The notes under the pieces were generated by a model. It did no database searches. It was not told where the DNA came from and saw nothing but the letters and a program-made list of their open reading frames with translations. Of a stretch of DNA of 64,000 nucleotides, positions 12,410 to 31,535 are shown piece by piece; within the stretch, counting starts at the first letter, position 1; every line of letters begins with the position of its first letter. The position numbers and the translations under genes are program-made. Source of the stretch: Anaerolineae bacterium (GTDB taxonomy: Bacteria > Chloroflexota > Anaerolineae > B4-G1 > SLSP01); contig JBNGCW010000006.1 of NCBI GenBank assembly GCA_049975525.1, positions 68,702 through 132,701 on the forward strand. Direction: 5' to 3'.

Positions 12410-13174
12410 TCACAGGAACAATGCCAGGCTCAAGATCAACAGCTCGCCGACGAGGGTCCAGCCGAAGAGGCGCCACGAACGACGTTCCCCAACGTGTCGA
12501 TAGTGGTGTTCCCCTCCACCGATGACCAGGGTGATCCAGCCCAGGGACAGGAAGAAGACGCCCCAGTTGCCCAGCGCGACGGCCGGCCAGGGATCTTGCC
12601 AGAGGCGCGCGTAGACGCGGAAGAAGAGCTCCCGCAGCAAGTAGATTTCGTAAAGGGCCACCACGGCAGTGCCCAGCCAGAGCGTCACGGCCAACGCCGT
12701 GGTGAGTGTGCGGCGCGGTTGCAGCAGGCGGGGATGTTGCCCCCAGCTCATCACCGGGACGAGGAAGAGGATGCAGGCCAGGGTGGGGAACGCCATCGTC
12801 CGCCCCGGCTTGGCGGCGATGAAAGCGGGCTCGACCTGCTGCACGAGGCCTAACAGCGCCGCCAGCAGCCCGATGAGGGCCGCGCCCACGGGCAGAAAGT
12901 CCACGACACGGCGGCGGTGCAGCTGCCGTTGGGGCGCGCGTCCCATGCGTGTCCGGACCGCGGCGAAGGTCATCTCTGCCGGCGGTTTGACGTCGTCAAG
13001 CGCGGTGCGCAGTTCGCGCCGCAGCCGCCGTTGGGTCTCCTCGTGGACGGTCAGCGCGGTACGGCAGGCGGGACAGGCGACCAGGTGTCGGTCCATGTGC
13101 TCCCGTTCCGCATCGGTCAGCGTCTGATGCACGTATCCGATCAGCTCATCTTGGGTGAGGTGTTGCTTCATCGC
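12410..13174 (-). CDS. Anti-sigma factor (zf-HC2 type) with a C-terminal tri-TM GGGEHHYRHVGE domain
   Basis: The start is at MKQHLTQDELIGYVHQTLTDAEREHMDRHLVACPACRTAL (H-x3-C-x2-C zinc finger), overlapping the sigma factor stop as ATGA. A TM segment and a membrane domain paralogous to 9888..10238 follow. Confidence 0.75.
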   Translation of the reverse strand, partial: AMKQHLTQDELIGYVHQTLTDAEREHMDRHLVACPACRTALTVHEETQRRLRRELRTALDDVKPPAEMTFAAVRTRMGRAPQRQLHRRRVVDFLPVGAALIGLLAALLGLVQQVEPAFIAAKPGRTMAFPTLACILFLVPVMSWGQHPRLLQPRRTLTTALAVTLWLGTAVVALYEIYLLRELFFRVYARLWQDPWPAVALGNWGVFFLSLGWITLVIGGGEHHYRHVGERRSWRLFGWTLVGELLILSLALFL

Positions 13175-13752
13175 AGTTCCTCTTCTTTCATCTGATGATA
13201 CAGGGCCGTCGGCGCGAGGCGTGTGCGCAGCTGCTTGTAGGCCAGTCGCACCCGCGACTGAGCGGTCCGCACCGGGCAATTCATGATGTCGGCGATTTCG
13301 CGGTAGGTGTGCCCGGCCCAGTAGCGCAGCACTACCGCCTCGCGCAGTGGTGGACTCAGGGCTTGAAGCGCGTCCCAGACTTCGCGGCGCGTCTCTTGCG
13401 CGAGGGCGCGGTGCTCCGGCCCGGGGCGGCCGGCGCGGGGCTCGTGGCCTCGATCCAGCCAGCGGGTCAACGAGATGACAGGCGCACGCCGTCGGCGATG
13501 GCGATCGCGGCTACGACTCACGGTGATGGTGTGCAGCCACGTCGAGAAGGTAGCGCGCGTGGGGTCGAAGCGGTGGATGTTGGTCAGCGCGTAGGTCAGC
13601 GCGTCCTGCGTCGCTTCCTCTGCATCCTCGGCGTTGCCCAGCAGGCTATAGGCCAGGCGGTAAGTCGAAGCGCGGAATCGCTCGTAAAGCGCCTTCGCGG
13701 CCCGCTCGTCGCCTGTCTGCCAACGTTCAATCCACCGCTCGATCTCGGTCAT
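13168..13752 (-). CDS. ECF-type RNA polymerase sigma-70 family factor
   Basis: Regions 2 and 4 are recognisable (ATQDALTYALTNIHRFDP...FSTWLHTI; LREAVVLRYWAGHTYREIADIMNCPVRTAQSRVRLAYKQLR). It is translationally coupled to the downstream anti-sigma gene. Confidence 0.85.
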   Translation of the reverse strand: MTEIERWIERWQTGDERAAKALYERFRASTYRLAYSLLGNAEDAEEATQDALTYALTNIHRFDPTRATFSTWLHTITVSRSRDRHRRRRAPVISLTRWLDRGHEPRAGRPGPEHRALAQETRREVWDALQALSPPLREAVVLRYWAGHTYREIADIMNCPVRTAQSRVRLAYKQLRTRLAPTALYHQMKEEELR

Positions 13753-18540: not shown

Positions 18541-18580
18541 AAGGGGGTAAAAAGAGACGAGCACCTGCCGGTGCTCGTCT
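18541..18580 (-). terminator. Rho-independent terminator closing the NTPase/GNAT/radical-SAM transcription unit
   Basis: Perfect 10-bp stem GACGAGCACC/GGTGCTCGTC with loop TGCC (18556-18579). On the minus strand it is followed by TCTTTTTACCCCC. Confidence 0.6.
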
Positions 18581-18606: not shown

Positions 18607-20133
18607 TCAGTGGCACCACCTCAGAAGACGCAGTCCCTCCAGGCGCAGGAGCGCAGGGAAGAGCGCGCGGTAAATGGCACAATAGGGGGAGGGGCCGGGC
18701 CTGGCCTGGACTGAGCGTGCCAGGAGTGGGCAGCCACCGGCACACCAGTAGCGCCAGGGGCACGTGTGGCATTGCAGCTTATCGTCCACGGGGACGTTTT
18801 GGAAGTTGGCATCAGCCGCCCGGATGGCATCGAGGGGGTCGTCGTTCTTGACGGTGCTCACGGTGTCATCCATGCGCATCTGGCAGCGGGACACGTTGCC
18901 CTGGGGGCCAATGACCAGGTAGCTGCGTCCGGCACCGCAGGGGTAGGCGTGGGGGCTGCTGAACAGGCTGCGATCCAGCAACCCATCGATAAAGCGCTCT
19001 CTGGGTAGATTTGCTTCGATGGTAGAGAGGGCGTTTTGCAACCCTGCGATCCAGCGCTGTTGGGCGTGGGGCTCTGCCAGGCGTGATATGCGCTCAGGAT
19101 CGCGCACAAAGTTGAGATTGAAGCGCAGATCGCGTTCCAGCGCAAAGGCGACTACCTCGCCGAGGTGATCGATGTTATGCTCGGTCACGGTGATGGAGAG
19201 ATAGGGAGCGAGGCCACGGTCTAACGCCCGATCGATAGTGCCGGCGACCTGTGCAAAGGAGCCCCGTCCATCGCTGAAAGGGCGTTGGGCATCGTGCGGC
19301 GCACCGACGCCGTCCAGCGAGATCATCAAGCGCACGTTTTGGTCCTGCAGCCAGGCGATCATGGCGTCGGTGAGACGGGTGCCGTTGGAGAGGAGGGTGG
19401 CGTGCAGTCCCAGACCACGGTGGTCCGTCAACGTCCGCGCATAAGCGTGCAGCGTGCTCACCAGGGGCCAGCGCAGTGTCGGCTCCCCGCCGGCGTACTT
19501 GAGTTTGACAGCCCGGAAGCCGTGCGCCTCGGCGGATCGAACGACGGCCTTGATGGCAGCGCGACCGGTGGCGACGTCCATCTCGCGTCCACGCTTGCGG
19601 ACGTAACAGTAGGGACAGCGGAGATTGCAGGCGTCGGTCACGTGCAGCCAGACGGTGAGGAGTTGCGGAGGCGCGTGCAAATGCTCGCCGGGTCCGCAGT
19701 CTGAGCTCAGCAGGCCCAGGGCGGCGAATTGCTCATCGGTTTCCGTCTTCAGGGGTCGGGGCTCCGTAAAGTGCGCGAACCGCTGCTGCGCGGCTGCGTT
19801 GAGCACCGCCACGGTGGCAGCGCCCTGGGTGTTGAAGAGTAGCGTATGGCCCTCCGGGAGCGGCGCTCGGTAGAGTGATGGGGGGATCTGCCAGAGAGCG
19901 TTGGTGCACGAGGGGGGTAGGCCCAGGGCAATCACCTCTGGGGCGCAGGCGCAGTCAGAGGCGGCTGTAGAATCCTTTAGCCAAATTCCACAGAACGATA
20001 GCGTCTCTGGGTACGCGCAGTCAGATTCGTTGTTCTCACCCAGGAGAGACCAAAAGAGCCGGGGGCGTTGCTTATTAAGCAAGGGTTTGTTCCCCCAATC
20101 GTAAACTACAAATCGTGTATCATCACCATCCAC
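18607..20133 (-). CDS. Radical SAM/SPASM-domain enzyme with an N-terminal roughly 150-aa extension containing a PqqD/RRE-like segment; a putative peptide-modifying maturase
   Basis: CNLRCPYCYV (CxxxCxxC), and C-terminal Cys clusters (CQMRM...CHTCPWRYWCAGGCP...YCAIY) typical of SPASM. The N-terminal HTLLFNTQGAATVAVLNAAAQQRF resembles the RRE/PqqD strand-helix. The start codon is uncertain, and the 5' end overlaps the GNAT gene by 28 nt. Confidence 0.75.
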   Translation of the reverse strand: MDGDDTRFVVYDWGNKPLLNKQRPRLFWSLLGENNESDCAYPETLSFCGIWLKDSTAASDCACAPEVIALGLPPSCTNALWQIPPSLYRAPLPEGHTLLFNTQGAATVAVLNAAAQQRFAHFTEPRPLKTETDEQFAALGLLSSDCGPGEHLHAPPQLLTVWLHVTDACNLRCPYCYVRKRGREMDVATGRAAIKAVVRSAEAHGFRAVKLKYAGGEPTLRWPLVSTLHAYARTLTDHRGLGLHATLLSNGTRLTDAMIAWLQDQNVRLMISLDGVGAPHDAQRPFSDGRGSFAQVAGTIDRALDRGLAPYLSITVTEHNIDHLGEVVAFALERDLRFNLNFVRDPERISRLAEPHAQQRWIAGLQNALSTIEANLPRERFIDGLLDRSLFSSPHAYPCGAGRSYLVIGPQGNVSRCQMRMDDTVSTVKNDDPLDAIRAADANFQNVPVDDKLQCHTCPWRYWCAGGCPLLARSVQARPGPSPYCAIYRALFPALLRLEGLRLLRWCH

Positions 20134-20585
20134 ATCGTATCACAAATCTCAAACTTAGTAAAGCTGTACTTCTTGAAGACATGAATGGCGCGCCGGTTGT
20201 CACGACGCGTTGTCAGTTTCAAGCGAGATAAACCACGGTGCTCAGCCCACGTCATGGCGTGTTGGATCAGGCAGGTGCCGAGCCCCTGATTTCGGTATGG
20301 GGGCAGCAACCCAAGCCCCAGTTCCGCTTCCTTTGGGGCATCCGTGGGAAAAACGCGGCACCAACCGATGGGACGTCCCTCTACCCTGGGCACCATCAAC
20401 AGATGGTCAGGACACTCCGGGTGGGAGAGCGCATGCGCCCACCTGGGGGTTGCTTTGAAACGAGCGGTGTGCATCCACTTACGCTCTCCGCAGACTGTAT
20501 CAATCACGGTGATAAGAAGATCTTGATCCTCAAGTCGATATCGAGAAACGATGAAGGTGTTGTAGCGCTCGAAGATGATATTCAC
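20106..20585 (-). CDS. GNAT family N-acetyltransferase
   Basis: The acetyl-CoA binding motif region is present (RNQGLGTCLIQHAMTWAEHRGLSRLKL...NRRAIHVFKKYSF). The start is apparently GTG. Confidence 0.8.
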   Translation of the reverse strand: MNIIFERYNTFIVSRYRLEDQDLLITVIDTVCGERKWMHTARFKATPRWAHALSHPECPDHLLMVPRVEGRPIGWCRVFPTDAPKEAELGLGLLPPYRNQGLGTCLIQHAMTWAEHRGLSRLKLTTRRDNRRAIHVFKKYSFTKFEICDTMWMVMIHDL

Positions 20586-20603: not shown

Positions 20604-23600
20604 TTATGTCAAAGAAACGTTACCCAGTTGCCTGGAGGCGAGCATCGTGTAGTGTTCATAAGACCCGAAAGTGTTTTCGAGCTCACGCCACAAGCGATTC
20701 TCCTCGGCTATAGTTGCCCATTCCCGGGCCATGTCACGGATAGTATTAAAGGCGGCAACCATCTCCTGCACATTCAACCCTTTCAGGCGTCTATGAATAG
20801 TGTTGAGCGCTCTGCGAATGCCCTGATATTCCTTACCCACCAATTCATTATATTCCATCGCCAGTACAAACTCTCGAATAGCTGTACAAAGGTTGGGATA
20901 GGGGGCTTCTTTTGTTCCTGCATCGAAGCTATCCATGGCCATCACGCCCCGCAAGACGTGTAATCGCCCCAATTGACTGAAGATGTCGATGAGAGTATCA
21001 TCGTTGATCTCCGGCTTCCGCTCTTTAGTGAGGAAATAGTCTCCAAAATTTCGCCTGGTTTCTTCCCCAAGTATTTCAAGGAAAGTCTCCGTATCCTCCC
21101 ACTCTTGTTCCGCGGCTCTCTCCGGTTGCTCTCTTTGCAGATAGTAGTACGTCCAGGCCAGACCCAGTGAAGCATCTAGATATTTCTGCCAGAGGTTTTC
21201 CTCTATAGCGATCTTCCTTGAGGCTTCCAGATTTTGAATCGCTGCTTTGGCGTGTTCTAAAGCGTGATCCTCTTCAGACAGAATAAGTTGCCGGTGGGTC
21301 AAGCCCTGTTCGTAAAGGGCAACCATGCGCCGCTCCGGTTCTCCATCTTTGAAGTGCTTCAATGCTTCTTTGGCTTCTTCTAAGGATTGCTGTAAAAGCC
21401 TAGGTCTCTCTCGCGCCGGTGTCTCTGGATCCTCACTCAAGAAGCGATGTAATCGACTTAGCGTCAGAAGAGATAGCCCTATGCCTCGCTTGAAATTCAG
21501 CGTTTGGGAAATCTCCAGAGATCTGGCTGCGTAGGGCTCTGCTTCACGGTAACGTCCTGCCTGGACTTCGACAGCAGCCCGCGTATTGTAGGTCAACGCT
21601 AATGGCAGGCGCGTGCCCAGCTTCTTACGCAGATTTAACGCATCTTTTACTTGATGACGGGCTACCTCGAATTCCCCGCTTAGCGCCAATGCGTATGCCA
21701 GATTTGTCAGCGTGTTCGCCTGCTCCGCTTCCAGTTTGGTAAGTCGCCAGTGCGGTAAGGCGTCTTGATAGGCTTCTGAGGCTGCGATAAATTGTCCCTG
21801 CACCCGGCGTAAATAGCCCAGATTGTTGTAGTTCCGTGCCAAAAGGGCGCTCCAGCGGATGAATTGGGAAGCGGGAACATCATATTCTTTTAGCTGCTTA
21901 TTGGCTGTGAGTAGAATATCTCCTGCCCGTTCGAGATCGTTTTGTTCGCTGTCTCCGCGGTAAATGCGAACCAATGCCTCCCATGTATTCAGTTCTGCTT
22001 CCGCCAGAACGCCACCATCAGCGACTAAGTCGCGTCCTCCATCGCGTAGCATCTGTACAATGCGCCAGGCTTCATCGAGGTTTTGTCGCTCGACGTACCG
22101 TTTTACCCACCGGATGGCCGCATCAGCCTCAAGATCGGCGCGTCTCAAGCCGTCGGCGATGATCTCCTGCTTGCCAGATGGATCCTGTTCGGCTACAAAA
22201 GTCAGGAGCTCGGCCCGCAATTGCATATCCAGATTCTCGTCGTGGGTGGCAATGGCCTCTTCTGCATAAAGGAAGTATGTCTGAAAACCCGCAGAGGGAT
22301 TCCAGCGCAGGCGATAATGCAGGTCTTCCACCAAAGCGTCTTCGAGGTACGCGCGAGCCTCCGCAACCTTTAAGGTATCAGGCAGTTCTTTTTCCAGGGC
22401 AGGATAGAGACCCGCGATGGCCTCCCGCGCCTCTTGGATGCGTTGCTTATAATAAGCCCGGATCTCCCGATAAACGCGCTCCCGCTCTTTATCTGCAATA
22501 TCTTTCAAGGCATGTTGGAACAACAAGTCGTACATCTCATCGTGCAGAAAGAGCCAGTCATCCTCAGGGCGGCGCTTGACGAAGGAGAGATCGCGGATCT
22601 GCTCCAGAGCATCTTCGACTTCTTCGAGCGTCAGGTCGGCAACGCGAGCCAGCAAAGCCGGTGGGCCACCTTTACGTAACCAGCCCAGTGCGATGATCAC
22701 CTCGTCGCCCGGACGGCGGTTCTCGCGCAGGGCCTGCACGAGACGCCTCCCTAGCTCGTCCCGTATCTCTTCTCGTCGATGGGTGGAGTATTGACGGGCT
22801 TCGTCCAGGGTGCTGCCAAAGGCTTCCAGCGGCCTGCCATCGATCACCAGGTGATCGATGGCGAGGGCCAACCAGATGGGCGGAATGGTCGGTGGATCTC
22901 CTCCATCGTGCAGACAATGAAAAATAGCGCGCCGTCTCTCTTGACCGAGGTGTTGAATGGCTTCTGCTGTCCTACGATCATGGGGGTTGTCGCTGTCCTG
23001 TGCAGCGGCAATAACGGCATCGAAATACGCTCGCGCTGCTTTTTCCTTCAAGCCTGATAGCTTCAAGGGTAGTATCTCCTGCCGTTCACTCAGACGGGCT
23101 TTCAATGTGGTGGCTAGATCCGGTTGATAAGGGCGTCCCGATAAGATCAGCACGACGTTTTGCACCTGTGGTAGGAACGTATTCAGCAACCACTTCAGTA
23201 CGTCGGGTTGCTCTTCCGTGATATGCAGATCGGCGGCGGCCAAATCCTCTTGTTGAAAAAGCTTCTCCACGGTGTCCAGCACCAACACCACACGCTGTTG
23301 ATCGGTAAGATTCTTTAGATCAGCGAAGAAAGCTTTTTGCAAGGCTTGGCGTTCGGCGGAAGGTATGGGTTCACCACGAGTGTAACGCTCACGAAGCTCT
23401 CGCCGCTTTTCTTGATAGCGCTCAAACTCAGTCGGTAAGACCGCCTGAATGCGTTCCATCAGCCCTGCAGCAGTACGCGCCGAGGTATGGTAAAGATCAA
23501 TGATGTCTGAGGCGACCAGCGGCTTGATCTCGAGTTGAGGGACATGTTCCAACACGTGTTGGACCAGGCGCGTTTTGCCGATACCTCCGGGGCCGGTGAT

Positions 23601-23720
23601 ATAGATGACGTAAGCGTTTGCGGTGTCAAGAATTGCTTGGTTGATCTGCAATACTTCTTTCTCACGTCCTACCAACTCAGGCGTGGCACGAACGCTCTCA
23701 TAGGTCTCGCGGTATGTCAT
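20604..23720 (-). CDS. STAND-type (AAA_16-like) P-loop NTPase with long C-terminal TPR repeat region (1038 aa)
   Basis: ELVGREKEVLQINQAILD...YVIYITGPGGIGKTRL (Walker A) and VVLVLDTVEKL (Walker B). The C-terminal half has multiple TPR-like repeats (LGYLRRVQGQFIAASEAYQDAL..., LTNLAYALALSGEFEVARHQ...). The region is about 50% GC versus about 67% in the flanks. RBS GGAGGG is upstream. Confidence 0.8.
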   Translation of the reverse strand: MTYRETYESVRATPELVGREKEVLQINQAILDTANAYVIYITGPGGIGKTRLVQHVLEHVPQLEIKPLVASDIIDLYHTSARTAAGLMERIQAVLPTEFERYQEKRRELRERYTRGEPIPSAERQALQKAFFADLKNLTDQQRVVLVLDTVEKLFQQEDLAAADLHITEEQPDVLKWLLNTFLPQVQNVVLILSGRPYQPDLATTLKARLSERQEILPLKLSGLKEKAARAYFDAVIAAAQDSDNPHDRRTAEAIQHLGQERRRAIFHCLHDGGDPPTIPPIWLALAIDHLVIDGRPLEAFGSTLDEARQYSTHRREEIRDELGRRLVQALRENRRPGDEVIIALGWLRKGGPPALLARVADLTLEEVEDALEQIRDLSFVKRRPEDDWLFLHDEMYDLLFQHALKDIADKERERVYREIRAYYKQRIQEAREAIAGLYPALEKELPDTLKVAEARAYLEDALVEDLHYRLRWNPSAGFQTYFLYAEEAIATHDENLDMQLRAELLTFVAEQDPSGKQEIIADGLRRADLEADAAIRWVKRYVERQNLDEAWRIVQMLRDGGRDLVADGGVLAEAELNTWEALVRIYRGDSEQNDLERAGDILLTANKQLKEYDVPASQFIRWSALLARNYNNLGYLRRVQGQFIAASEAYQDALPHWRLTKLEAEQANTLTNLAYALALSGEFEVARHQVKDALNLRKKLGTRLPLALTYNTRAAVEVQAGRYREAEPYAARSLEISQTLNFKRGIGLSLLTLSRLHRFLSEDPETPARERPRLLQQSLEEAKEALKHFKDGEPERRMVALYEQGLTHRQLILSEEDHALEHAKAAIQNLEASRKIAIEENLWQKYLDASLGLAWTYYYLQREQPERAAEQEWEDTETFLEILGEETRRNFGDYFLTKERKPEINDDTLIDIFSQLGRLHVLRGVMAMDSFDAGTKEAPYPNLCTAIREFVLAMEYNELVGKEYQGIRRALNTIHRRLKGLNVQEMVAAFNTIRDMAREWATIAEENRLWRELENTFGSYEHYTMLASRQLGNVSLT

Positions 23721-23735
23721 GATTTCCCTCCACTC

Positions 23736-24914
23736 TCAAGACAGTGCCATCACAGATGTGCAATCTGCTTCACGGTGTTGCAGCTGCTGCTGGTGATATT
23801 GATACGCTTTCTGCCAGTGTTCTTGGGTGCGCTTATATTTTTGGGCCCATCCCTGGTATAGATTGGCTGCCGCACATTGCAGGCGTTCCCAGGTGGCTGG
23901 TCTGTTGTTTCTCATGTACTGCTCAACCAGCTGGCGGACAGGTTCGTCCAGCGCGTATGCGCTTTCTTCGGAGTCCCAGCGTGCGAAACCTGTCTCGACC
24001 AACGCTTCGCGGACCTGACGCGCTTGTGCGTGGGACCAGTGATGATATTGGGAATTGTTGTGGTAGGCGGCTAACATGACCGGGATCCGCGCCTCATCGA
24101 AGACCTGCAGGACGCACAGAGCCTCAAGGTACTCGCGTACGCTCTGCCGTCGGCCTGGATCCTTGATGCTCTTCAACATCTCGTGGATGACTTGGCCGAG
24201 GGCTTCTCCTGGATCCTCGTGTTCGGCTAAGAGGTAAGTTGCCAGGGGATTCCCTTTGCTGATCTTATAGATCTCCTGTGCGCGTGAGACGGCTCGTTTG
24301 CGTTGTCGCTTCAATTGTTCGTGCGTCGCGGACTTGGAGAACGGCTCTAAATCGACAAATTCTGCATCAAACCTCAGTTCCGGCGTGGTAAAGGGATATG
24401 GACGTCCACGTCCTGCCAGGACAATCAGCGTTTGCGGTTCAACGGCCAGGGGGCCCAAGACGTACTCTTCCAGTGCGTCCAGCAGATCCCAACCGGCTTC
24501 GTAGACGTGATCAACCAGCAATACCAATACCCGGGCATTCAGTTGCTTGGTCACCTGTGCCAAAAAGCGCCGGCTCATCTCGGAAGGTTCATCGGTCTGC
24601 AGTTTGAGATTCAAGGTTTTTGCCAGGTGCTGCAGAATGTCGGTGACGGCGATCAAGGGATTCCAGTCCTCGTATGCCGTGAGATCCAGCCCACAAGGGA
24701 TGACCCCCCGCATACTGTCGAGTACCGTCTGCAGGTGTTTGAGCAGCCACGTTTTGCCGGTCCCTCGTTCTCCCAGGAAGATCACCGTCCGCTTAGGGAC
24801 CGATTTACCCTCAGCCAGACGGTGGGCTCTATCGATAACCTCCTCGATTTTATCTTCTCGGTCCACGAAGAGTTCCTTTTTGTATTCAAGTAGGGTAATT
24901 TCTTTGTTATTCAT
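23736..24914 (-). CDS. AAA_16/STAND-like P-loop NTPase (about 390 aa)
   Basis: FVDREDKIEEVIDRAHRL...VIFLGERGTGKTWLLKHL (Walker A) and VLVLLVDHV (Walker B). The start is chosen at the second ATG (MNNKEI) preceded by a purine-rich RBS. A 15-nt gap separates it from the downstream gene. Confidence 0.7.
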   Translation of the reverse strand: MNNKEITLLEYKKELFVDREDKIEEVIDRAHRLAEGKSVPKRTVIFLGERGTGKTWLLKHLQTVLDSMRGVIPCGLDLTAYEDWNPLIAVTDILQHLAKTLNLKLQTDEPSEMSRRFLAQVTKQLNARVLVLLVDHVYEAGWDLLDALEEYVLGPLAVEPQTLIVLAGRGRPYPFTTPELRFDAEFVDLEPFSKSATHEQLKRQRKRAVSRAQEIYKISKGNPLATYLLAEHEDPGEALGQVIHEMLKSIKDPGRRQSVREYLEALCVLQVFDEARIPVMLAAYHNNSQYHHWSHAQARQVREALVETGFARWDSEESAYALDEPVRQLVEQYMRNNRPATWERLQCAAANLYQGWAQKYKRTQEHWQKAYQYHQQQLQHREADCTSVMALS

Positions 24915-24965
24915 CTCGATTCTCCCTTCCATACAAAGCGGCGAGCGAACGCGGTTGGCGGCGTC

Positions 24966-26189
24966 TCACTCGCCTTGGTATGCGGGTGTTCCCCCTCGGT
25001 TGTGTTGATAGCGTTCTATAGCTTGCTCGATGTCCTTTTCTTCCAAATAGCCCTCACGGCCCGCGCGTCGCAAGTGAAACTGCAACATATCGCGGGTCAG
25101 CACAAGCATCTCGCGCGGCAGGGGCTCAACAGCTTCGGCTAACAGCGTCTCCACGTCGCGCAGTCCCGGGGACGCGATGGCATCCAGACTGCCAAAGGCT
25201 CCCTCACTGGCTACGTAGACGCGACGGCGAACGACCTCGCTCAACAGCGCCGGTGACCACGTCAGAAAAGCACAGCGCTGCGCAGCAAAGGCTTCGGGAC
25301 ATCGCTGCTGTAAGGTTCGATGCGTCGCCAGCGGGAGAAAGCCCTTGACGTAGATGCCTTGCTCCGCCCACGTGAAGAGGTGAGGTATCCAGGGGTCCAG
25401 AACGGCGACGACGTTATCGGCGTCCAGATACGTCTCCGGGACAGCGTCCAGACCATCCAGCAGGATGTACAAAGAGCGCACGTGTAGGGTGTCCAACAGC
25501 GCTGCAAGCAAAGCCTCCCAGCGGGTCGCTGCACTCTCAGGCCTGTCCTCCGCAGAGGGCGTCGCTTCTATTGCCCGGCACCACTCACGCAACGTATCGG
25601 GTTTTGGCGGGTCGGGCAAGGCGAAGGCCGGCCCCAGGTTCAACGCTCTCCGCACCTGCGTTAAACTGCCCGTTTCCCGGCAGAGCTCAACATATGTGGA
25701 CAGCGGTCCCGGCAGATTCCACGCCAACGCTCTGCGGAGTACACGCCGGTCTTCACCTTGCAGGTTCATGAACCAGTGAGGGCGATAGGCCAGCGTCATG
25801 AGTAGGGCGCGAGCGCCAGCACGTCCCAATGCCAGGAGATGGTCGTCCCACGAAGGCGGCAGCCGCTCCCAGCGTAAATAAGGAGGATTATACGGGATGG
25901 GAAAGGGGCGGTTGGGTGCCTGTCCAACCCAACAGGCGCGTGTGGTACGGACGCGCATAGCCGTCTTACCTCCGCCGGCCGGTGCGAAAAGCCAGGCAAT
26001 CCAGTCGCCCCAGACGTGCGCAAACTGCTCGTGCCCGACGAGGTATTGACTCAAATGGGGATCTTCAGCCGCATTGAGGACGGCAAACGGATCAAAACGC
26101 AGTCCCCGATCGCGCAGCCAGTGCCACAGGGATGCCTCGTCTGCTCGCAATGTAGCCTGGGTAGTGCTTGATAAAGATGACATCTTCAT
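24966..26189 (-). CDS. P-loop NTPase (407 aa), family unresolved
   Basis: WLFAPAGGGKTA (Walker A) and LYILLDGLDAVPE (Walker B-like). There are no other recognisable domains. Confidence 0.6.
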   Translation of the reverse strand: MKMSSLSSTTQATLRADEASLWHWLRDRGLRFDPFAVLNAAEDPHLSQYLVGHEQFAHVWGDWIAWLFAPAGGGKTAMRVRTTRACWVGQAPNRPFPIPYNPPYLRWERLPPSWDDHLLALGRAGARALLMTLAYRPHWFMNLQGEDRRVLRRALAWNLPGPLSTYVELCRETGSLTQVRRALNLGPAFALPDPPKPDTLREWCRAIEATPSAEDRPESAATRWEALLAALLDTLHVRSLYILLDGLDAVPETYLDADNVVAVLDPWIPHLFTWAEQGIYVKGFLPLATHRTLQQRCPEAFAAQRCAFLTWSPALLSEVVRRRVYVASEGAFGSLDAIASPGLRDVETLLAEAVEPLPREMLVLTRDMLQFHLRRAGREGYLEEKDIEQAIERYQHNRGGTPAYQGE

Positions 26190-26413
26190 CTAAGCGGTTT
26201 GATCATACGTTCACTAGGCCATCTGACTATATCAAAACTCGCTTCTAAGGTGTGCAAATGCAACGGGCAAACCCCACAGCTTGAGGACTACCTCAATCAG
26301 GTTAACAAACATTATATGTCAAACACAAGAAGATACTTTTATCATAACGGGTATTTGCTCACTGCTATGCCACAATTCTCTAACTTAGATGTCACGTATA
26401 TCTCACGACAATC

Positions 26414-27796
26414 TCACCAGCGCACATGGAGCCTGATGCCGTATCCGCGAACTGTCTCCAGCAGCACGGGATGGGAGGGGTCCGGTTCAATCGCCTTCCG
26501 CAGCCGCCACAAGTTGGTGTCGATAACACCCTCGTAATTGTGTGTATCTTCGTACTTCTCCTCATGCTGAGCTGGAATCCGCTTCAGTTCGCGATATCCA
26601 AGGTAGTAGAGTTCCTTCTTTGGAATGACCTCGTCCGCTCGTTGGTAAAGATACCGCAGCATCGCATACGCCTTAGCCGGAACCTTGGAGAGGTCGATGT
26701 CCCGTCCACCCACCAGGATGCGACGGGCCTGCTCGTCCAGATAGAGCCGAGGCGGGTGTTCTTCTCGCAACGTCAACCAGGTGGTTTCGTCAATGGGTAG
26801 ACGGTTTTGCCGGACGGCATGGCGCGCCAGCGGCGCGACCTGATCCAACCAGTGCCGGGGGGAGTGACCCCCTGCTTTCTTCAGCCAGGGGAGGAACTCG
26901 GGGGAGGCACACAGTGCTTCCAGCGAGACCTTTTCTTTATCAAGCACCAGAGCCAGACGGCGCTCAACAACGCGCCGGAGCGAGCCCGTGTCCCAGCGGA
27001 GATGCATGCTATCCAACCGTCGGCGGGCTATGCCCCCGGCGTGACTCAATATCGGCGCCAGATGGGTGGGAGCCCAGAGTTTGTAGATCAAGCCGGCTTG
27101 TTCAAAGAGGGCCAGGGTTGAAAGAAAAGCGCCTAAACCACGAACGACGTGTTCAGTATCTACCGGAGCCCAGCCCGCCAAGCCGTCGCTCATAATCCAA
27201 ATTCCATCCAGCTCTATGCCATGTAAGGTGGTGACCAACTCTGCAAGGATCTGATCAGGGTCTGCGTCGTCATGGAGGACATCTTTCACCGGTGCTTCTA
27301 GAAGATCATTGATAACCTCCGCGCCCTGAGGGTACTGTTGTGTCAGCGGCTCAAGCCGCAGACGAGCATCTCCGTGTAGAAACCGACAAATGAACCAGCG
27401 CAGGCGTGTTTTCACCCAATCGGGGGCTTCTCGGTAGTCCGTCGGATGAGCGGCGAGATGGCCCACCAGTGCCTTCGCGCATTTGTCGAAAATCTCGAAG
27501 ACTTGTCGCCGGACCCAGCCGAGATTGGCTTCAACGCCGGGGGGGAGCGGTGCAGGGCGCCAGTCCACCAGGAGGCGCAACGGGTGCCCCTCGGTGGTGT
27601 GACTGCGGCGGCGGAGCTCGCGATAGAGCGCCGTCTTGCCGGAGCCGGGACCGCCGAAGACGATGATAGAGCGGGGAGCGAGTATCCGCTCAAAGCCCGG
27701 CGGCGGCACGAAGCAGGCAGACAGCCAGGGCTCGGCCTCGGCCCGCAGGTCGTTAAAGGCCGCCTCGTAGGTCACGGGTGGAGTCTCGGTTTTCAT
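26414..27796 (-). CDS. P-loop NTPase fused to a C-terminal OmpR/PhoB-type winged-helix DNA-binding domain
   Basis: IIVFGGPGSGKTALYREL (Walker A) and IWIMSDGLAGW (Walker B-like). The C-terminus NLWRLRKAIEPDPSHPVLLETVRGYGIRL matches the trans_reg_C consensus (hIsrLRkKl.dp...I.TVRGvGYrl). Confidence 0.75.
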   Translation of the reverse strand: MKTETPPVTYEAAFNDLRAEAEPWLSACFVPPPGFERILAPRSIIVFGGPGSGKTALYRELRRRSHTTEGHPLRLLVDWRPAPLPPGVEANLGWVRRQVFEIFDKCAKALVGHLAAHPTDYREAPDWVKTRLRWFICRFLHGDARLRLEPLTQQYPQGAEVINDLLEAPVKDVLHDDADPDQILAELVTTLHGIELDGIWIMSDGLAGWAPVDTEHVVRGLGAFLSTLALFEQAGLIYKLWAPTHLAPILSHAGGIARRRLDSMHLRWDTGSLRRVVERRLALVLDKEKVSLEALCASPEFLPWLKKAGGHSPRHWLDQVAPLARHAVRQNRLPIDETTWLTLREEHPPRLYLDEQARRILVGGRDIDLSKVPAKAYAMLRYLYQRADEVIPKKELYYLGYRELKRIPAQHEEKYEDTHNYEGVIDTNLWRLRKAIEPDPSHPVLLETVRGYGIRLHVRW

Positions 27797-29793
27797 GCTG
27801 CGGTCTCTTCCGGAGGATCTCCCAGGATGTCGATAAGATCATCCATATTTAGCAGTGCCTGCTTTTGACCGATCCGTCGGATAAGATCATTCCCCAATTG
27901 GAACATCCGGCCCAGTTTTCCCTCGGCGGCGTGAACGATCCACGCCTCGAGATCAGGAAGCGAGGGTCTTATCACCGGATCACACCACTCCCGGAGGGCG
28001 CTTTCACCGCTGTGTTTTAATCTTTGCTCTAGAATCGCCTTCAGTTTGGCTGGCGAGAGGGTTAAATCATAATGGGGAATGTCGAGGCTTTCGGTTAACA
28101 TCGTCATCGCCGAAGCCTGCACAGGCGGCATAAACACCTTGATAAACACACCGGCATGGCCTAACTTTTCACACCAGATCGATAGTCTCCTACCCCATAG
28201 ACGGGGATCCTGGGGTGTACTCTGTACATCTAATAACATCAAAGTGGCCTCAAAGGGTCGGGGGCGCGCTTGACGCAGTAGGATCAGCAGCTCGTTTTCT
28301 GATAGCGGCGCATCGGTGGGTGCAGATTGCGCCAGAGTCTCGATTTCCTGCACCATCTGAGCACCCTCTCCGACTTCCGGCACGCCGGCTCTCCGGAAAT
28401 GATAGGTCAGCCGGGGCGTGAAGTATCTGCCCAGCAAATGGGCCATGGATGCTTTTTTGTCAATTGATGACTTGAGAAAATCCTCCGGGGTTACCGCGAG
28501 GTAATGTAACAACGTGTAGGCCAGGGAACGGCTCAGGGTTTCAAATTGCAGTTGAACCGGTGTTCCGCGCCAGTAGACCGGGAAGACCGATCGGTCAGCC
28601 GTAAGTGCGTCGCGGGCTATCCACAGCGCTGTGGCCGTCTTGCCCGCGCCTTTGTCACCGGTGTACAAAGCGGTTTCAAACAAACGGATGTCTTTCCACC
28701 AGTTTGGCGAAATGCGCGTTTTGAGCAGAGCAGAGTCGGTTTCTGCGACCGCATTCCCAAAAGGCGGAACGTGGAGGCCTACGTAACGCAGGCCGGAGGC
28801 CAGGGCCGTATCAGGTGTTGGAGGGAGCCTGTGCCAGAGTGAAATCTGTGGAGAACATCGTAAAATCTGCACCCACTGTCGCTGCTGTGCTTGCTGTAAT
28901 CGGCGGCCGTCAATATGTATCGCATAGGCCGGAAGATCGCTTAAGGATAAGAACCCCGGCCATGCCTTTTGACGCCAGTCGTCGTCCAGATTCTCCAGTG
29001 TCCATTCCAAGACGTGAGCCGGACGGGATTCCTCCATCTCCCCCGCGATTTTCTTGAAGCGCTCCGCTTCGTCGACACAGGCTAACAGTCTCACGGCATC
29101 GCGAAGGTCAGCCGGCGCAGTGGTTTGCCAGGCTTCCTTCAACCCGCTCTGGATCCGCTCTTTTTTCCATACCCCATCATTTCTTCTCAACAAACTCAAG
29201 TAGCGGCGTGCGCCTTTCGAATAATCGTCCTGCAATAACCGCCGCCATTCTTCGATCTCGTTCCTGGCATCACGAAGATGCTTTTTGCGTTCCTCTTCAC
29301 CCGACGAGATTATTTTCCACTGTTGAATGCCAAATCCTGCCAGGGTCGTGATCAGGGTGCCAATGAGAGCAGTCGATGACTGACCTGTGGCTTTTTCGAG
29401 TAAAGTGTAGACAACATAAGCAATAAGTAGCCATAATCCTAACAACGGCAGCGCCTTGACAAAGACCAGCACGGAGGTCAACGGCCAGTCTTCAGACCAA
29501 CGCCACCAATGATGTGCTACCCTCTTCCAGAGACGGAAACGTTCTCTGAAGTTAACGAAATCGATGGATAGGAGACTTAAAGTGATGATCAGTGCTATCT
29601 GCAGTGCTAGCGACCGCTCAACTTGGAGAACGGCTAATAGAATCAGACATGACAAGTAGAATAATACGGCTCTAGCGAACCACGTTGTTACATGGGGTAA
29701 ATCCCAGAGTAGTGCATAGAGTGAGTGTAAGAACGAGACGGCCTCTTCCCACACTGGTTGTAGCCACTCCCGCACATCAAAGCGCTTTCGCAT
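27793..29793 (-). CDS. Membrane-anchored P-loop NTPase (about 4 N-terminal TM helices)
   Basis: TM helices (VLFYLSCLILLAVLQV, LALQIALIITLSLLSI, VLVFVKALPLLGLWLLIAYVVY, LIGTLITTLAGFGI), then TALYTGDKGAGKTATALWIARDA (Walker A) and TLMLLDVQ (Walker B-like). The start is chosen at MRKRF (ATG 29793) with a GGAGGAG RBS; the ORF could extend to 29910. Its stop overlaps the downstream gene's start (27793/27796). Confidence 0.65.
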   Translation of the reverse strand: MRKRFDVREWLQPVWEEAVSFLHSLYALLWDLPHVTTWFARAVLFYLSCLILLAVLQVERSLALQIALIITLSLLSIDFVNFRERFRLWKRVAHHWWRWSEDWPLTSVLVFVKALPLLGLWLLIAYVVYTLLEKATGQSSTALIGTLITTLAGFGIQQWKIISSGEEERKKHLRDARNEIEEWRRLLQDDYSKGARRYLSLLRRNDGVWKKERIQSGLKEAWQTTAPADLRDAVRLLACVDEAERFKKIAGEMEESRPAHVLEWTLENLDDDWRQKAWPGFLSLSDLPAYAIHIDGRRLQQAQQRQWVQILRCSPQISLWHRLPPTPDTALASGLRYVGLHVPPFGNAVAETDSALLKTRISPNWWKDIRLFETALYTGDKGAGKTATALWIARDALTADRSVFPVYWRGTPVQLQFETLSRSLAYTLLHYLAVTPEDFLKSSIDKKASMAHLLGRYFTPRLTYHFRRAGVPEVGEGAQMVQEIETLAQSAPTDAPLSENELLILLRQARPRPFEATLMLLDVQSTPQDPRLWGRRLSIWCEKLGHAGVFIKVFMPPVQASAMTMLTESLDIPHYDLTLSPAKLKAILEQRLKHSGESALREWCDPVIRPSLPDLEAWIVHAAEGKLGRMFQLGNDLIRRIGQKQALLNMDDLIDILGDPPEETAA

Positions 29794-30005
29794 CGTCTCC
29801 TCCGCAAGGGGTAATGGGGACATCTTTATCTTACTACAACTCCACGCAAAGCACAACTTTCCCCGTGAGATTGCTGTGAGATTCGGGTGGGAGAAGAGTA
29901 TGCCCACCAACAGGAAGCGGTTGGGTAGCTGTATGCGGGTCGCGGCCTAAAGATGCTTTAATAAGATCAGATTACTTCTCAGACCCACCAATGAAGGAGG
30001 CAGCC

Positions 30006-31535
30006 ATGCACACAGAATCCCCCCAAGGGGCTGGGCGCCGGGATGAAGTCGTCGCCATCGTCGACCGCTATCAGCTCCAAGAGCGCAGCAAACGCCGCAA
30101 TGTCAAGGTCGATCCCGCACGCGAGGCCGAGATGTTACGGCTGCTGTTGGGCGTCTACGGGCGGAACAAGCGTCTAATCGCCGTCCTCAACGAGGACGAC
30201 CGCGACGCCATCAGCGCTTACAAGAAGCACGCCTATGAGGTCAAGCCGATGAACGGAGATCGTCCCAATGCGCTCCGGCGCCTGATCAAGGAGGAGTTCG
30301 ATCGCCCCTCGCCTAAGCACCTCGTCGTCATCAGCGACGACCCCGCGTTCTCCACGCTCTGCACCTTCGCCGCCCGCAACAACACCCAGGTCTCCGTCTG
30401 GTCCCCTACCAGCCGCATCCCCGAGGACCTGCGCGACGCCCGCTTCGACGTCCGCTATCTCAACGAGCTCCTCCCCGATACCTACATCCAGCTGGGCGTG
30501 GCCGTCGTCTGGCTGGATATCGAGAACTTGCTCATCGGCCTGAAGGAAAAGGGCGTCATCCCGGACATCAAAACCTTCGTCGATGCCATTCGCCAGGAGG
30601 TCAGCGACCTGGGCGACGTGACCAGCATCATCGCCTACGGCGACTTCGGGCTCCTGCGCAAGATCTTCGGCACCGACGTGCAGCGCAAGTTGGAGCAGCT
30701 CGGCGTCCGCACCCGCTACCAGGTCAACGTGCACGGCAAGAACAGCGCCGACATGGAGATCGCCGGCGACATCCACACGTATCTGGAGCGTGACCCCAAC
30801 GTCGAGACGGTCATCATCGGCACCGGCGACCGCGACTTCCGTCCCTCCGTGGACGCTGCCCACGGCAAGGGCAAGAAGGTCATCATCCTGGCCCTCAAGG
30901 AGAGCCTCAGCCGCGACCTCCGCCAGGCCGCCGACGACGTGCGCTTTCTCGACAAGTACTTCACCGCCGACACCCCTTCGCCGACGCCGGTGACCGCCGA
31001 GCTGCGCAACCGCTGGGTCCCCATCCTCCTGCGTTTCGCCGACCGGCTCCACAGCCGCCGCTGGCGCTGGGCTTACCGTGACAAGGTAAGTGACCTGTTC
31101 TCCAGCGACGAGATCCGCGAGGCCCTGGAGGCCGGACTGCTCAAGCACGGACGCGACGGCGATCCCCGCACCCTCACCTTCGACTTCAACCATCCGCTGG
31201 CCTGTCAGGTTTATCACATGGCCTGGTGGATCGTTGAGCGCGTGGAGTACCTCGTCAACGAGAAAGGCATGCCCTACGTCGATACCCACTACCTCGCCCG
31301 AGGCATGCGCCGGGATGCAAAGTGCCGGGATCTGGACATCGGTCAGGATCGTGCCGACGCCGAAGCGTGGCTCCACGCCGCGGCGGCCGCCGACCTCATC
31401 GTCAAGCGCACTCAACCGCATCCCAAGGCGCCGCACAAACAGATCGACACTTGGTGGCCGCAGGCGCCCCTCCTCCCGACCCCGGCGATCTTCCGTCAGC
31501 GCGAGGAACGCCCCCCCGCCCCCACCGAGGTCTGA
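30006..31535 (+). CDS. NYN (LabA-like, PIN-related) domain nuclease with possible additional N-terminal degenerate NYN and C-terminal OST-HTH/LOTUS-like region
   Basis: VAVVWLDIENL...GKNSADMEIAGDIHTYL...VIIGTGDRDFRP match NYN catalytic motifs. The start is chosen at ATG 30006, 6 nt after GGAGG. It is divergent from the NTPase array. Confidence 0.7.
   Translation: MHTESPQGAGRRDEVVAIVDRYQLQERSKRRNVKVDPAREAEMLRLLLGVYGRNKRLIAVLNEDDRDAISAYKKHAYEVKPMNGDRPNALRRLIKEEFDRPSPKHLVVISDDPAFSTLCTFAARNNTQVSVWSPTSRIPEDLRDARFDVRYLNELLPDTYIQLGVAVVWLDIENLLIGLKEKGVIPDIKTFVDAIRQEVSDLGDVTSIIAYGDFGLLRKIFGTDVQRKLEQLGVRTRYQVNVHGKNSADMEIAGDIHTYLERDPNVETVIIGTGDRDFRPSVDAAHGKGKKVIILALKESLSRDLRQAADDVRFLDKYFTADTPSPTPVTAELRNRWVPILLRFADRLHSRRWRWAYRDKVSDLFSSDEIREALEAGLLKHGRDGDPRTLTFDFNHPLACQVYHMAWWIVERVEYLVNEKGMPYVDTHYLARGMRRDAKCRDLDIGQDRADAEAWLHAAAAADLIVKRTQPHPKAPHKQIDTWWPQAPLLPTPAIFRQREERPPAPTEV

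Follow-up and report, generated by a model that had tools for sequence, protein, structure and literature searches.

A probable OmpR-class regulator with an AAA+ input domain in an undescribed multi-NTPase cassette of the Anaerolineae

A row of genes on the minus strand of a 64-kb stretch of Anaerolineae DNA (contig JBNGCW010000006.1 of assembly GCA_049975525.1; hereafter the window) includes one, here called gene B, for a probable OmpR-class regulator whose input domain is an AAA+ NTPase. Gene B stands in an undescribed cassette of several NTPase genes, with the order A-B-C-D-E-(GNAT)-rSAM; the last gene encodes a radical S-adenosylmethionine (rSAM) enzyme. Direct repeats phased at 11 bp begin within the B stop codon, and recur upstream of gene A. 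We consider it fairly probable that B is an NTP-switched, pho-box-style activator of the OmpR/PhoB class, in which an AAA+ module takes the place of the phosphorylatable receiver.

OmpR/PhoB effector domains are the commonest output of two-component systems, and almost always are gated by phosphorylation. Here, the same output domain would be gated by an ORC/Cdc6-like ATPase, in a family of at least 263 clusters at 50% identity. Because the cis-elements can be read from the sequence, the system is immediately testable: operator, promoters, regulator, and likely partners all are defined. The cassette also exposes a conserved and wholly uncharacterised module of seven to eight genes in the Anaerolineae, a poorly studied and mostly uncultured class. 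A literature search found no description of the B family or of the cassette.

The B open reading frame (ORF) encodes a 460-residue protein, identical to "hypothetical protein ACP5HM_03790" from an Anaerolineae metagenome-assembled genome (MAG). Its parts are as follows.

26414 to 27796, minus strand: gene B, AAA+ NTPase with C-terminal OmpR/PhoB winged helix, 460 residues (Pfam, AlphaFold model, Foldseek, family profile)
26759 to 27757, minus strand: B residues ~14-346, ORC/Cdc6-STAND-like AAA+ core and helical lid (homologue alignment, model, Foldseek)
27632 to 27655, minus strand: Walker A of B, GGPGSGKT, residues 48-55
27173 to 27202, minus strand: Walker B of B (hhhhDGLA)
26417 to 26749, minus strand: B residues 350-460, OmpR/PhoB effector domain with beta platform, three helices, and hairpin (Pfam, model, Foldseek, family profile)

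An earlier note, made from the letters of the window alone, described B as an NTPase with a C-terminal OmpR/PhoB-type winged helix, and this description has held. Pfam Trans_reg_C (PF00486) matches B with a score of 32.2 bits (E = 1.1e-7), above its gathering cut-off, 26.2. The match is confined to profile positions 39-77 (residues 418-456) because the α2-α3 ("transactivation") loop is long, about 16 residues (402-417), a length kept across the family. The B family profile, by contrast, aligns the entire effector domain (profile positions 352-462): to RegX3 with E = 3e-12, and also to WalR and PhoB. In the AlphaFold model (built on 46 homologues; pLDDT 92.2, pTM 0.88), residues ~350-460 match the effector domains of PhoB, YycF/WalR, RstA, and OmpR, with Foldseek TM-scores of 0.73-0.80 and root-mean-square deviations of 2-4 Å. 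Secondary structure assigned by DSSP follows the order of the OmpR/PhoB fold: strands, 351-367; helices, 374-385, 393-401, and 418-436; strands, 446-456. Recognition-helix residues D426, T427, W430, R431, and R433 are invariant or nearly so in the family. B is the sole cassette protein in which Pfam and NCBIfam scans detected a DNA-binding domain.

The remainder of the protein has the elements of an ORC/Cdc6-STAND-type AAA+ ATPase: Walker A, Walker B, and a helical lid (residues 270-346 in the model), followed by the winged helix. Foldseek against the PDB matched residues 1 to ~346 to the AAA+ ATPases TnsC, BrxC, Orc1/Cdc6, and RdrA; the likeness to TnsC, BrxC, and Orc1 is at fold level, with TM-scores of about 0.3-0.5 and 12-14% identity. 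The Walker A sequence GGPGSGKT does not vary across 46 homologues. Walker B in the family reads DGLE, whereas the window's B has DGLA instead. Curated profiles fall short: Pfam ORC-CDC6-like (22.4 bits versus a cut-off of 27); the NCBIfam Sll1717-family P-loop ATPase (NF047389, cut-off 75 bits; B 48.8, A 26.5, C 19.5); and the DS-41 antiphage protein, also termed "AAA2" (NF053860, equivalog cut-off 370 bits; C 67.4, B 43.3). Judged from the model, B lies in the ORC/Cdc6-STAND clade at fold level, outside any curated family. Among sequence families, Sll1717 and the DS-41 ATPase are what the ATPase domains of A, B, and C match best, apparently as distant relatives; those two families carry no OmpR winged helix-turn-helix (wHTH).

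Pfam gave no Response_reg match on B, whose N-terminus is a P-loop AAA+ domain instead. Likewise, a Pfam scan and gene survey found no histidine kinase in the cassette, in agreement with the earlier proposal of an output that dispenses with one. The same proposal called the domain order unusual, which is true in part. In response regulators, a C-terminal wHTH normally comes after an input domain, and in ORC/Cdc6 an AAA+ domain normally precedes a C-terminal winged helix; what is unusual is that an AAA+ module is joined to a wHTH of the OmpR type.

OmpR-type direct repeats had been predicted for two intergenic regions, between B and C and upstream of A, and both contain 11-bp phased GTGAGAT arrays.

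26341 to 26417, minus strand: array 2, units GTGAGAT/GTGAGAT/GTGACAT/GTTAGAG/GTGGCAT/GTGAGCA, 11-bp phased (pattern search, cross-locus comparison)
29865 to 29962, plus strand: array 1, units GTGAGAT/GTGAGAT/GTGGGAG followed by five weaker 11-bp units (pattern search, cross-locus comparison)
29828 to 29856, minus strand: A-B promoter, TTGTGC-17 nt-TAAGAT (comparison with locus L008 and other loci with a divergent array)
29991 to 31535, plus strand: NYN-domain (RNase-type) gene; likely start ATG 30006, after AAGGAGG (domain scan)

Read on the minus strand from 26417, array 2 begins GTGAGAT tgtc GTGAGAT atac GTGACAT ctaa GTTAGAG, with further units after these; the B stop codon (tgG-TGA-gat) falls within the opening unit. 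The position of array 1 depends on where gene A starts. The called ORF (27793-29910) begins with TTG at 29910, a start that we rejected; A probably starts at ATG 29793, after the Shine-Dalgarno sequence GGAGGAG, since both the promoter and the Shine-Dalgarno sequence ahead of this ATG are kept in locus L008 (related loci are numbered with the prefix L). The intergenic region given earlier as 29911-30005 therefore reaches down to about 29794, and thus holds the repeats. With up to two mismatches, GTGAGATN4GTGAGAT occurs four times in the 64 kb, each time inside array 1 or 2, against 0.29 occurrences expected by chance; shuffling reached four in 0 of 100 trials. Pattern and matrix searches of the 64 kb found no further arrays.

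The arrays are conserved along with B. Tandem GTGAG/GTAAG units, two or more at 11-bp spacing, lie at the B stop codon in 15 loci that span 30-100% protein identity, and in a 16th locus they begin 15 nt downstream of the stop. Where the stop codon is TAA, the unit becomes GTAAGrT. The unit consensus is G-T-[GA]-A-G-[AG]-T-A-n-n-T. The periodicity extends to units 4-6, which were excluded from matrix building: G occupies unit position 1 in 27 of 39 cases, versus 5-14 of 39 at other offsets. Conservation is greatest in the units distal to the -10 element, not in the units that cover it.

The arrays also are phased with respect to promoters, which are sigma-70-like in appearance. Array 2 ends at the -10-like hexamer TATGAT (26341-26346), which belongs to an internal promoter that lies upstream of C and whose -35 is poor. 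Across loci, such hexamers lie downstream of the arrays at index 59, 70-72, or 80-81 (an 11n+4 register), and most of the additional arrays obey this register too; 14 of the 23 candidates in all fall exactly at index 11n+4 (P = 1e-9). Most array promoters have a -35 element matching at only two or three of six positions, and 8 of 19 have a TGn extended -10, whereas the A-B promoters have a good, recognisable -35. The A promoter is conserved between the window and L008 (TTGTGC/TTGTCT-17-TAAGAT). The first units of array 1 lie just upstream of this divergent promoter; the array then runs toward the NYN gene and ends at TGcTTTAAT (29954-29962, index 92), 28 nt ahead of the NYN ORF start at 29991. 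Equivalent divergent arrays are present in L008, L010, and L012, each with a -10 at index 92, and the -10 of the A-B promoter is at exactly +32 to +37 from the array edge in all four loci with a divergent array. These fixed offsets on both sides indicate a fixed bidirectional control region.

The B-C gap has other features. At 26311-26322 (minus strand), about 25 nt downstream of the phased -10, TTGACA abuts TATAAT without a spacer, so that a second consensus -10 lies out of register (index 101). An RNA element in the gap was considered and rejected: Rfam gave no family at E ≤ 1 in 18-31 kb, and shuffled sequences fold as well as the putative C 5' untranslated region does (z = 0.17). Lack of conservation led us to reject a small ORF or precursor peptide there. 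An 8-mer common to both L003 control regions, GTATAGAC, was judged to be within chance.

The phased arrays bear on a reading in which B would not be a gene-specific regulator. AAA+ core, lid, and winged helix together make the canonical layout of ORC/Cdc6 and BrxC (bioRxiv 10.1101/2025.10.09.681413), so the winged helix of B could be the generic DNA-contacting domain of such ATPases, for loading onto or sensing DNA (foreign DNA, for example); another factor then would bind the repeats, or they would be non-functional. This is highly improbable, as the winged helix is specifically of the OmpR/PhoB type, with a beta platform, and the arrays are specific to the cassette, kept at 30% identity, tied to the B stop codon, and promoter-phased.

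The other genes of the cassette are as follows.

27793 to 29793, minus strand: gene A, paralogue of B, with N-terminal transmembrane-like segments, helical linker, and AAA+ domain (hhalign, motif and hydrophobicity inspection)
about 29419 to 29682, minus strand: transmembrane-like segments of A
27796 to 28761, minus strand: AAA+ domain of A, with Walker A at 28636-28659
24966 to 26189, minus strand: gene C, third paralogue, stand-alone ATPase (hhalign, NCBIfam, motif alignment)
23736 to 24932, minus strand: gene D, short STAND (AAA_16) NTPase (Pfam, hhalign)
20604 to 23720, minus strand: gene E, STAND (AAA_16) NTPase with TPR sensor-like arm (Pfam, hhalign)
20106 to 20585, minus strand: GNAT acetyltransferase, found in most cassettes (Pfam)
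18607 to 20082, minus strand (gene row 18607-20133): radical-SAM/SPASM peptide-maturase-like enzyme (NCBIfam, repeat analysis, AF2 model)
18555 to 18580, minus strand: intrinsic-terminator-like hairpin, 11 pairs and a T run, at the operon end (hairpin search)

The C-terminal ATPase of A, the N-terminal part of B, and C are mutually related (hhalign probabilities 99.3-99.8%, E 1e-21 to 1e-29, more than 310 columns), and D is related to the N-terminal part of E (profile-profile probability 98.1%). The pair envisaged in the earlier note, an upstream membrane-anchored NTPase signalling to B, therefore is too small a system. On sequence grounds it comprises three paralogous AAA+ ATPases, two STAND ATPases, a GNAT, and a radical-SAM/SPASM enzyme, in an order that holds, down to 30% identity, wherever a locus is of sufficient length to reveal it. 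The translational overlap on which the pair was built is real: the A stop and B start share ATGA, in the window and in relatives, and A has three or four hydrophobic, transmembrane-like segments along with a Walker A motif, GDKGAGKT.

A role for A as membrane sensor finds no support. Its ATPase motifs have decayed in several relatives (GGGRT, GSGHS, or no motif at all). The A N-terminus is a variable module, transmembrane-like in most loci; in L016 (7812-9953) the effector-associated domain EAD7 replaces it (41 bits versus a cut-off of 32), and A of L006 (6173-7570) has a weaker, sub-threshold EAD7 match. This swap makes the transmembrane region look like an exchangeable anchor, adaptor, or effector module, not a dedicated sensor. 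In C, by comparison, Walker A is strictly conserved, and Walker B (LLDGLDAxPE) is NACHT-like. In L022 (3940-6264), C and D form a single fused protein of 774 residues, which argues for physical interaction between them.

These elements suggest how the cassette may be controlled. In pho-box promoters of the PhoB regulon, direct repeats of a 7-bp core and 4-bp spacer stand in phase and replace the -35. The cassette arrays share these traits: 7+4-bp units, 11-bp phasing, tandem placement upstream of a -10, and absence of a good -35. They differ in being longer (five to eight units), and in that one begins in the regulator's own stop codon. A and B would be made together, translationally coupled, from a promoter whose recognisable -35 is taken to give basal expression. 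Active B, presumably ATP-bound and oligomeric, would bind head-to-tail on the GTGAGAT repeats, as PhoB does on pho boxes. Array 2, in helical phase with the -10 of its poor--35 promoter, would then switch on C-D-E-GNAT-rSAM, the genes that its position indicates it controls; the bidirectional region would drive the NYN RNase gene; and array 1, at about -47/-58 of the A-B promoter, would allow B to regulate itself. A (membrane- or EAD7-tethered, and often catalytically degenerate) and C (intact) most likely would control B through AAA+ hetero-oligomerisation, a step that we infer from paralogy, translational coupling, and gene order.

The arrays also could work in the opposite sense, with B an autorepressor or roadblock at rest that is removed when A, C, or ATP turnover responds to a signal. 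Many regulators of defence and toxin operons are repressors; the arrays reach within a few bp of the -10 hexamers; and array 2 is placed where read-through from A-B enters C, no terminator having been found between B and C. Derepression nevertheless appears unlikely. Poor -35 elements accompany the array promoters, and good ones the A-B promoters; the strict helical phasing to the -10 and the 7+4-bp units mirror PhoB-activated promoters; and conservation is greatest in the distal units, not in those over the -10.

Activation by B has points to its discredit as well. B and the arrays are linked by co-occurrence alone, and an array that comes so near the -10 (a few bp) might keep RNA polymerase off the promoter, resulting in repression. 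Conserved C-terminal Trp-stop codons partly impose the first array unit. Two extra arrays (one after the rSAM gene in L010, the other in L015) are off the exact -10 register. The window's B, with its DGLA motif, may bind ATP yet hardly hydrolyse it. Finally, the transmembrane region of A is not universal.

Comparison with known regulators helps to place B. It resembles PhoB/OmpR response regulators in having a C-terminal DNA-binding fold after an N-terminal input domain, but the input is an AAA+ NTPase of ~345 residues, and receiver, phospho-acceptor Asp, and cassette-encoded kinase all are absent, so B is not a response regulator; the long, conserved α2-α3 loop is a further difference. SARP/AfsR, EmbR, HilA, and CadC/ToxR also use an OmpR-type wHTH outside two-component signalling, and AfsR joins it with a STAND ATPase and TPRs, which in the cassette form the separate protein E. 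However, the wHTH of the SARP/AfsR group is N-terminal, followed in SARPs by BTAD; that of B is C-terminal, and Pfam detected no BTAD on B, which is not a SARP for these reasons.

In Orc1/Cdc6, BrxC, TnsC, and DnaA, as in B, an AAA+ core is followed by a lid and a C-terminal (winged) helix domain, and TnsC, BrxC, and Orc1 are the best structural matches for the N-terminal part of B. Proteins of this group work by oligomerising on repeated DNA elements in an ATP-dependent manner. The winged helix of B is of another type, though, and its proposed targets are promoters of its own operon, not origins, transposon targets, or phage DNA.

MalT/LAL regulators (STAND with LuxR HTH) and enhancer-binding proteins (AAA+ with Fis-type HTH) are the precedents for an NTPase that gates a C-terminal DNA-binding domain, as proposed for B. 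Control by a partner at the membrane has a precedent too, since MalK, the ATPase of a membrane transporter, keeps MalT inactive. B differs in ATPase clade and in DNA-binding domain; its cassette places the sensor repeats on a separate protein; and Pfam and NCBIfam gave no match on B to the Sigma54_activat AAA+ domain, GAFTGA, or Fis-type HTH, the sigma-54 hallmarks. By analogy, B functionally belongs with these NTP-gated activators.

The same class of bacteria offers a parallel case, also uncharacterised. A 428-residue protein of GCA_964575455.1 (L023 5320-6606, also L022 13114-14400) joins AAA_35 to Trans_reg_C (44.8 and 49.2 bits), and is paired in L023 (5320-8116) with an AAA_35 paralogue that ends in a transmembrane segment. 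The pair adjoins a NACHT-HEAT protein, a CHAP/ricin-lectin protein, and a sister DCAC radical-SAM enzyme. The arrangement recalls that of B: NTPase followed by C-terminal OmpR wHTH, membrane-anchored paralogue, large STAND protein, and sister rSAM. The ATPase family (PF14516) is unrelated, however, and no GTGAGAT array follows the stop codons of the AAA_35-Trans_reg_C genes. This independent pairing supports the view that a membrane-anchored ATPase and an ATPase-wHTH protein form a functional pair.

A first search placed the B family in 85 clusters at 90% identity, all of about 450-490 residues with PF00486; the 263 representatives at 50% identity (E ≤ 1e-30) nearly all match end to end. At least four loci came from a metagenome scan. 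All named family members are Chloroflexota (Anaerolineae, Anaerolineales, Thermoflexales, or Ardenticatenaceae), and by these searches the cassette is confined to Anaerolineae. The sole match outside Chloroflexota, in a Clostridia MAG (L017 10001-10285), covers only the wHTH part (residues 345-456, 29% identity).

What the cassette does is a separate question. It might be a conflict system of a filamentous bacterium, for anti-phage defence or programmed cell death, with B as the transcriptional trigger of toxic effectors: the NYN RNase, small membrane peptides, and possibly the transmembrane module of A. We entertain this tentatively. The array-downstream gene is of NYN RNase type in the window and adjoins the array in L010 and L016 too; elsewhere, the arrays are followed by small ORFs that have strong Shine-Dalgarno sequences and, in several cases, very hydrophobic products (L008, L015, and L016 supply those that favour a toxic role).

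L015 ~13156-13284: small array-downstream ORF, 42 residues
L016 7237-7335: small array-downstream ORF, 32 residues
L008 7508-7941, minus strand: small array-downstream ORFs, 51 and 77 residues
L012 6822-6992, minus strand: small array-downstream ORF, 56 residues

These small ORFs could encode membrane-active effectors, or could be mere unannotated genes. The multiple STAND and ORC-like NTPases also suit a conflict role, as does EAD7 on A of L016 and, more weakly, L006; EAD7 is a hallmark adaptor of NTPase conflict systems (Kaur et al. 2020, PMC7159879), although those systems lack the OmpR wHTH, and this gene set is not described in the papers on them, on Sll1717, or on DS-41. C, and more weakly B, resemble far below cut-off the DS-41 ATPase, which is validated as antiphage (PMC13092281). 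Transposases, caspase, and PIN toxin lie near the cassette in L003 and L005. Base composition is suggestive too: G+C (GC) content is 0.51-0.58 in a block at about 20-30 kb of the window, versus about 0.64 in its flanks.

Other observations fit poorly with conflict. A PADLOC-DB scan of six cassette proteins gave no meaningful match (best E 0.001-0.03, P-loop segments only), and tblastn found no B match in plasmids and phages. The flanks mostly are housekeeping genes that differ among loci; restriction to one bacterial class is unusual for mobile defence systems; and no classical effector is fused to any cassette NTPase. If conflict is its role, the cassette would clearly exemplify triggering at the level of transcription by an NTPase-wHTH fusion.

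The rSAM enzyme, invariably the final gene of the array-controlled operon, points elsewhere. It resembles maturases of ribosomally synthesised and post-translationally modified peptides (RiPPs) in NCBIfam: nif11-type, PapB, and QhpD. Its N-terminus carries one to three tandem leader/core-like repeats of ~23 residues, with the family form ILWSxP...E[SQ]DCAC and the window form LFWS...ESDCA[CY].

20011 to 20022, minus strand: DCAY motif of the rSAM N-terminus
19945 to 19956, minus strand: DCAC motif of the rSAM N-terminus

In a set of 120 homologues, two copies are commonest (70), ahead of one copy (35) and three copies (5). The final DCAC does not vary (44 sequences), and in the loci examined DCAC is restricted to the rSAM N-terminus. 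The AF2 model has a short N-terminal strand (residues 9-12), a disordered DCAC segment (pLDDT 27-49), and then a strand-helix domain like a RiPP recognition element (RRE). The N-terminus thus modelled may be a leader/core peptide joined in cis to the enzyme that matures it, an arrangement that would be unusual for RiPP-type chemistry if confirmed; alternatively, DCAC may be an auxiliary-cluster ligand. Small ORFs before the rSAM gene were rejected as precursors: those in L003 and L005 are mutually unrelated, and none was found in L016.

The cassette accordingly might serve a regulated pathway of peptide or cofactor maturation. B, D, and E would be a split functional analogue of SARP/AfsR or LAL regulators, controlling an rSAM enzyme that modifies its own N-terminal DCAC peptide, with tailoring by the GNAT. 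SARPs join the same three parts, OmpR-type wHTH, STAND ATPase, and TPRs, and the repeats, the model, and the fixed last place of the rSAM gene all agree. We nevertheless find it doubtful: no protease, transporter, or separate precursor gene was found at the rSAM loci examined; five NTPases are extravagant as regulator of one enzyme; and NYN and EAD7 fit poorly.

Activation by B is compatible with a more elaborate scheme, which is speculative and, as a whole, rather improbable. In a kinase-free, ATP-driven machine, an A-B-C hetero-oligomer (A tethered, C the motor) would free or activate B, which would polymerise along five to eight turns from its own stop codon and fire the poor--35 promoters. 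The output would be a second tier formed by the STAND sensors D and E, a self-modifying rSAM enzyme, and toxic accessories (NYN RNase or small membrane peptides): an unrecognised inducible switch for conflict or differentiation in filamentous Chloroflexota.

Some minor observations remain. In each of nine loci compared, the A-E block (window 20604-29793) is 1-10 GC points below the radical-SAM gene beside it, and in most of the nine also is below its flanks. Horizontal transfer, low expression, or amino-acid composition may be the cause; low GC of the block relative to its surroundings is a further point that a conflict role can claim. In L005 (7631-17154), the cassette appears broken, with A, D, and E each split into two or three ORFs, which could reflect pseudogenisation or assembly frameshifts; transposases, a TnsA-like gene, a caspase, and a PIN/PhD pair lie nearby. 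The NYN protein of the window matches Pfam NYN at residues 172-320, and its C-terminal ~190 residues are without a match. N-terminal to the Pfam match, a segment beginning HLVVISDDPAF resembles, by eye, a second, degenerate NYN-type half-domain.

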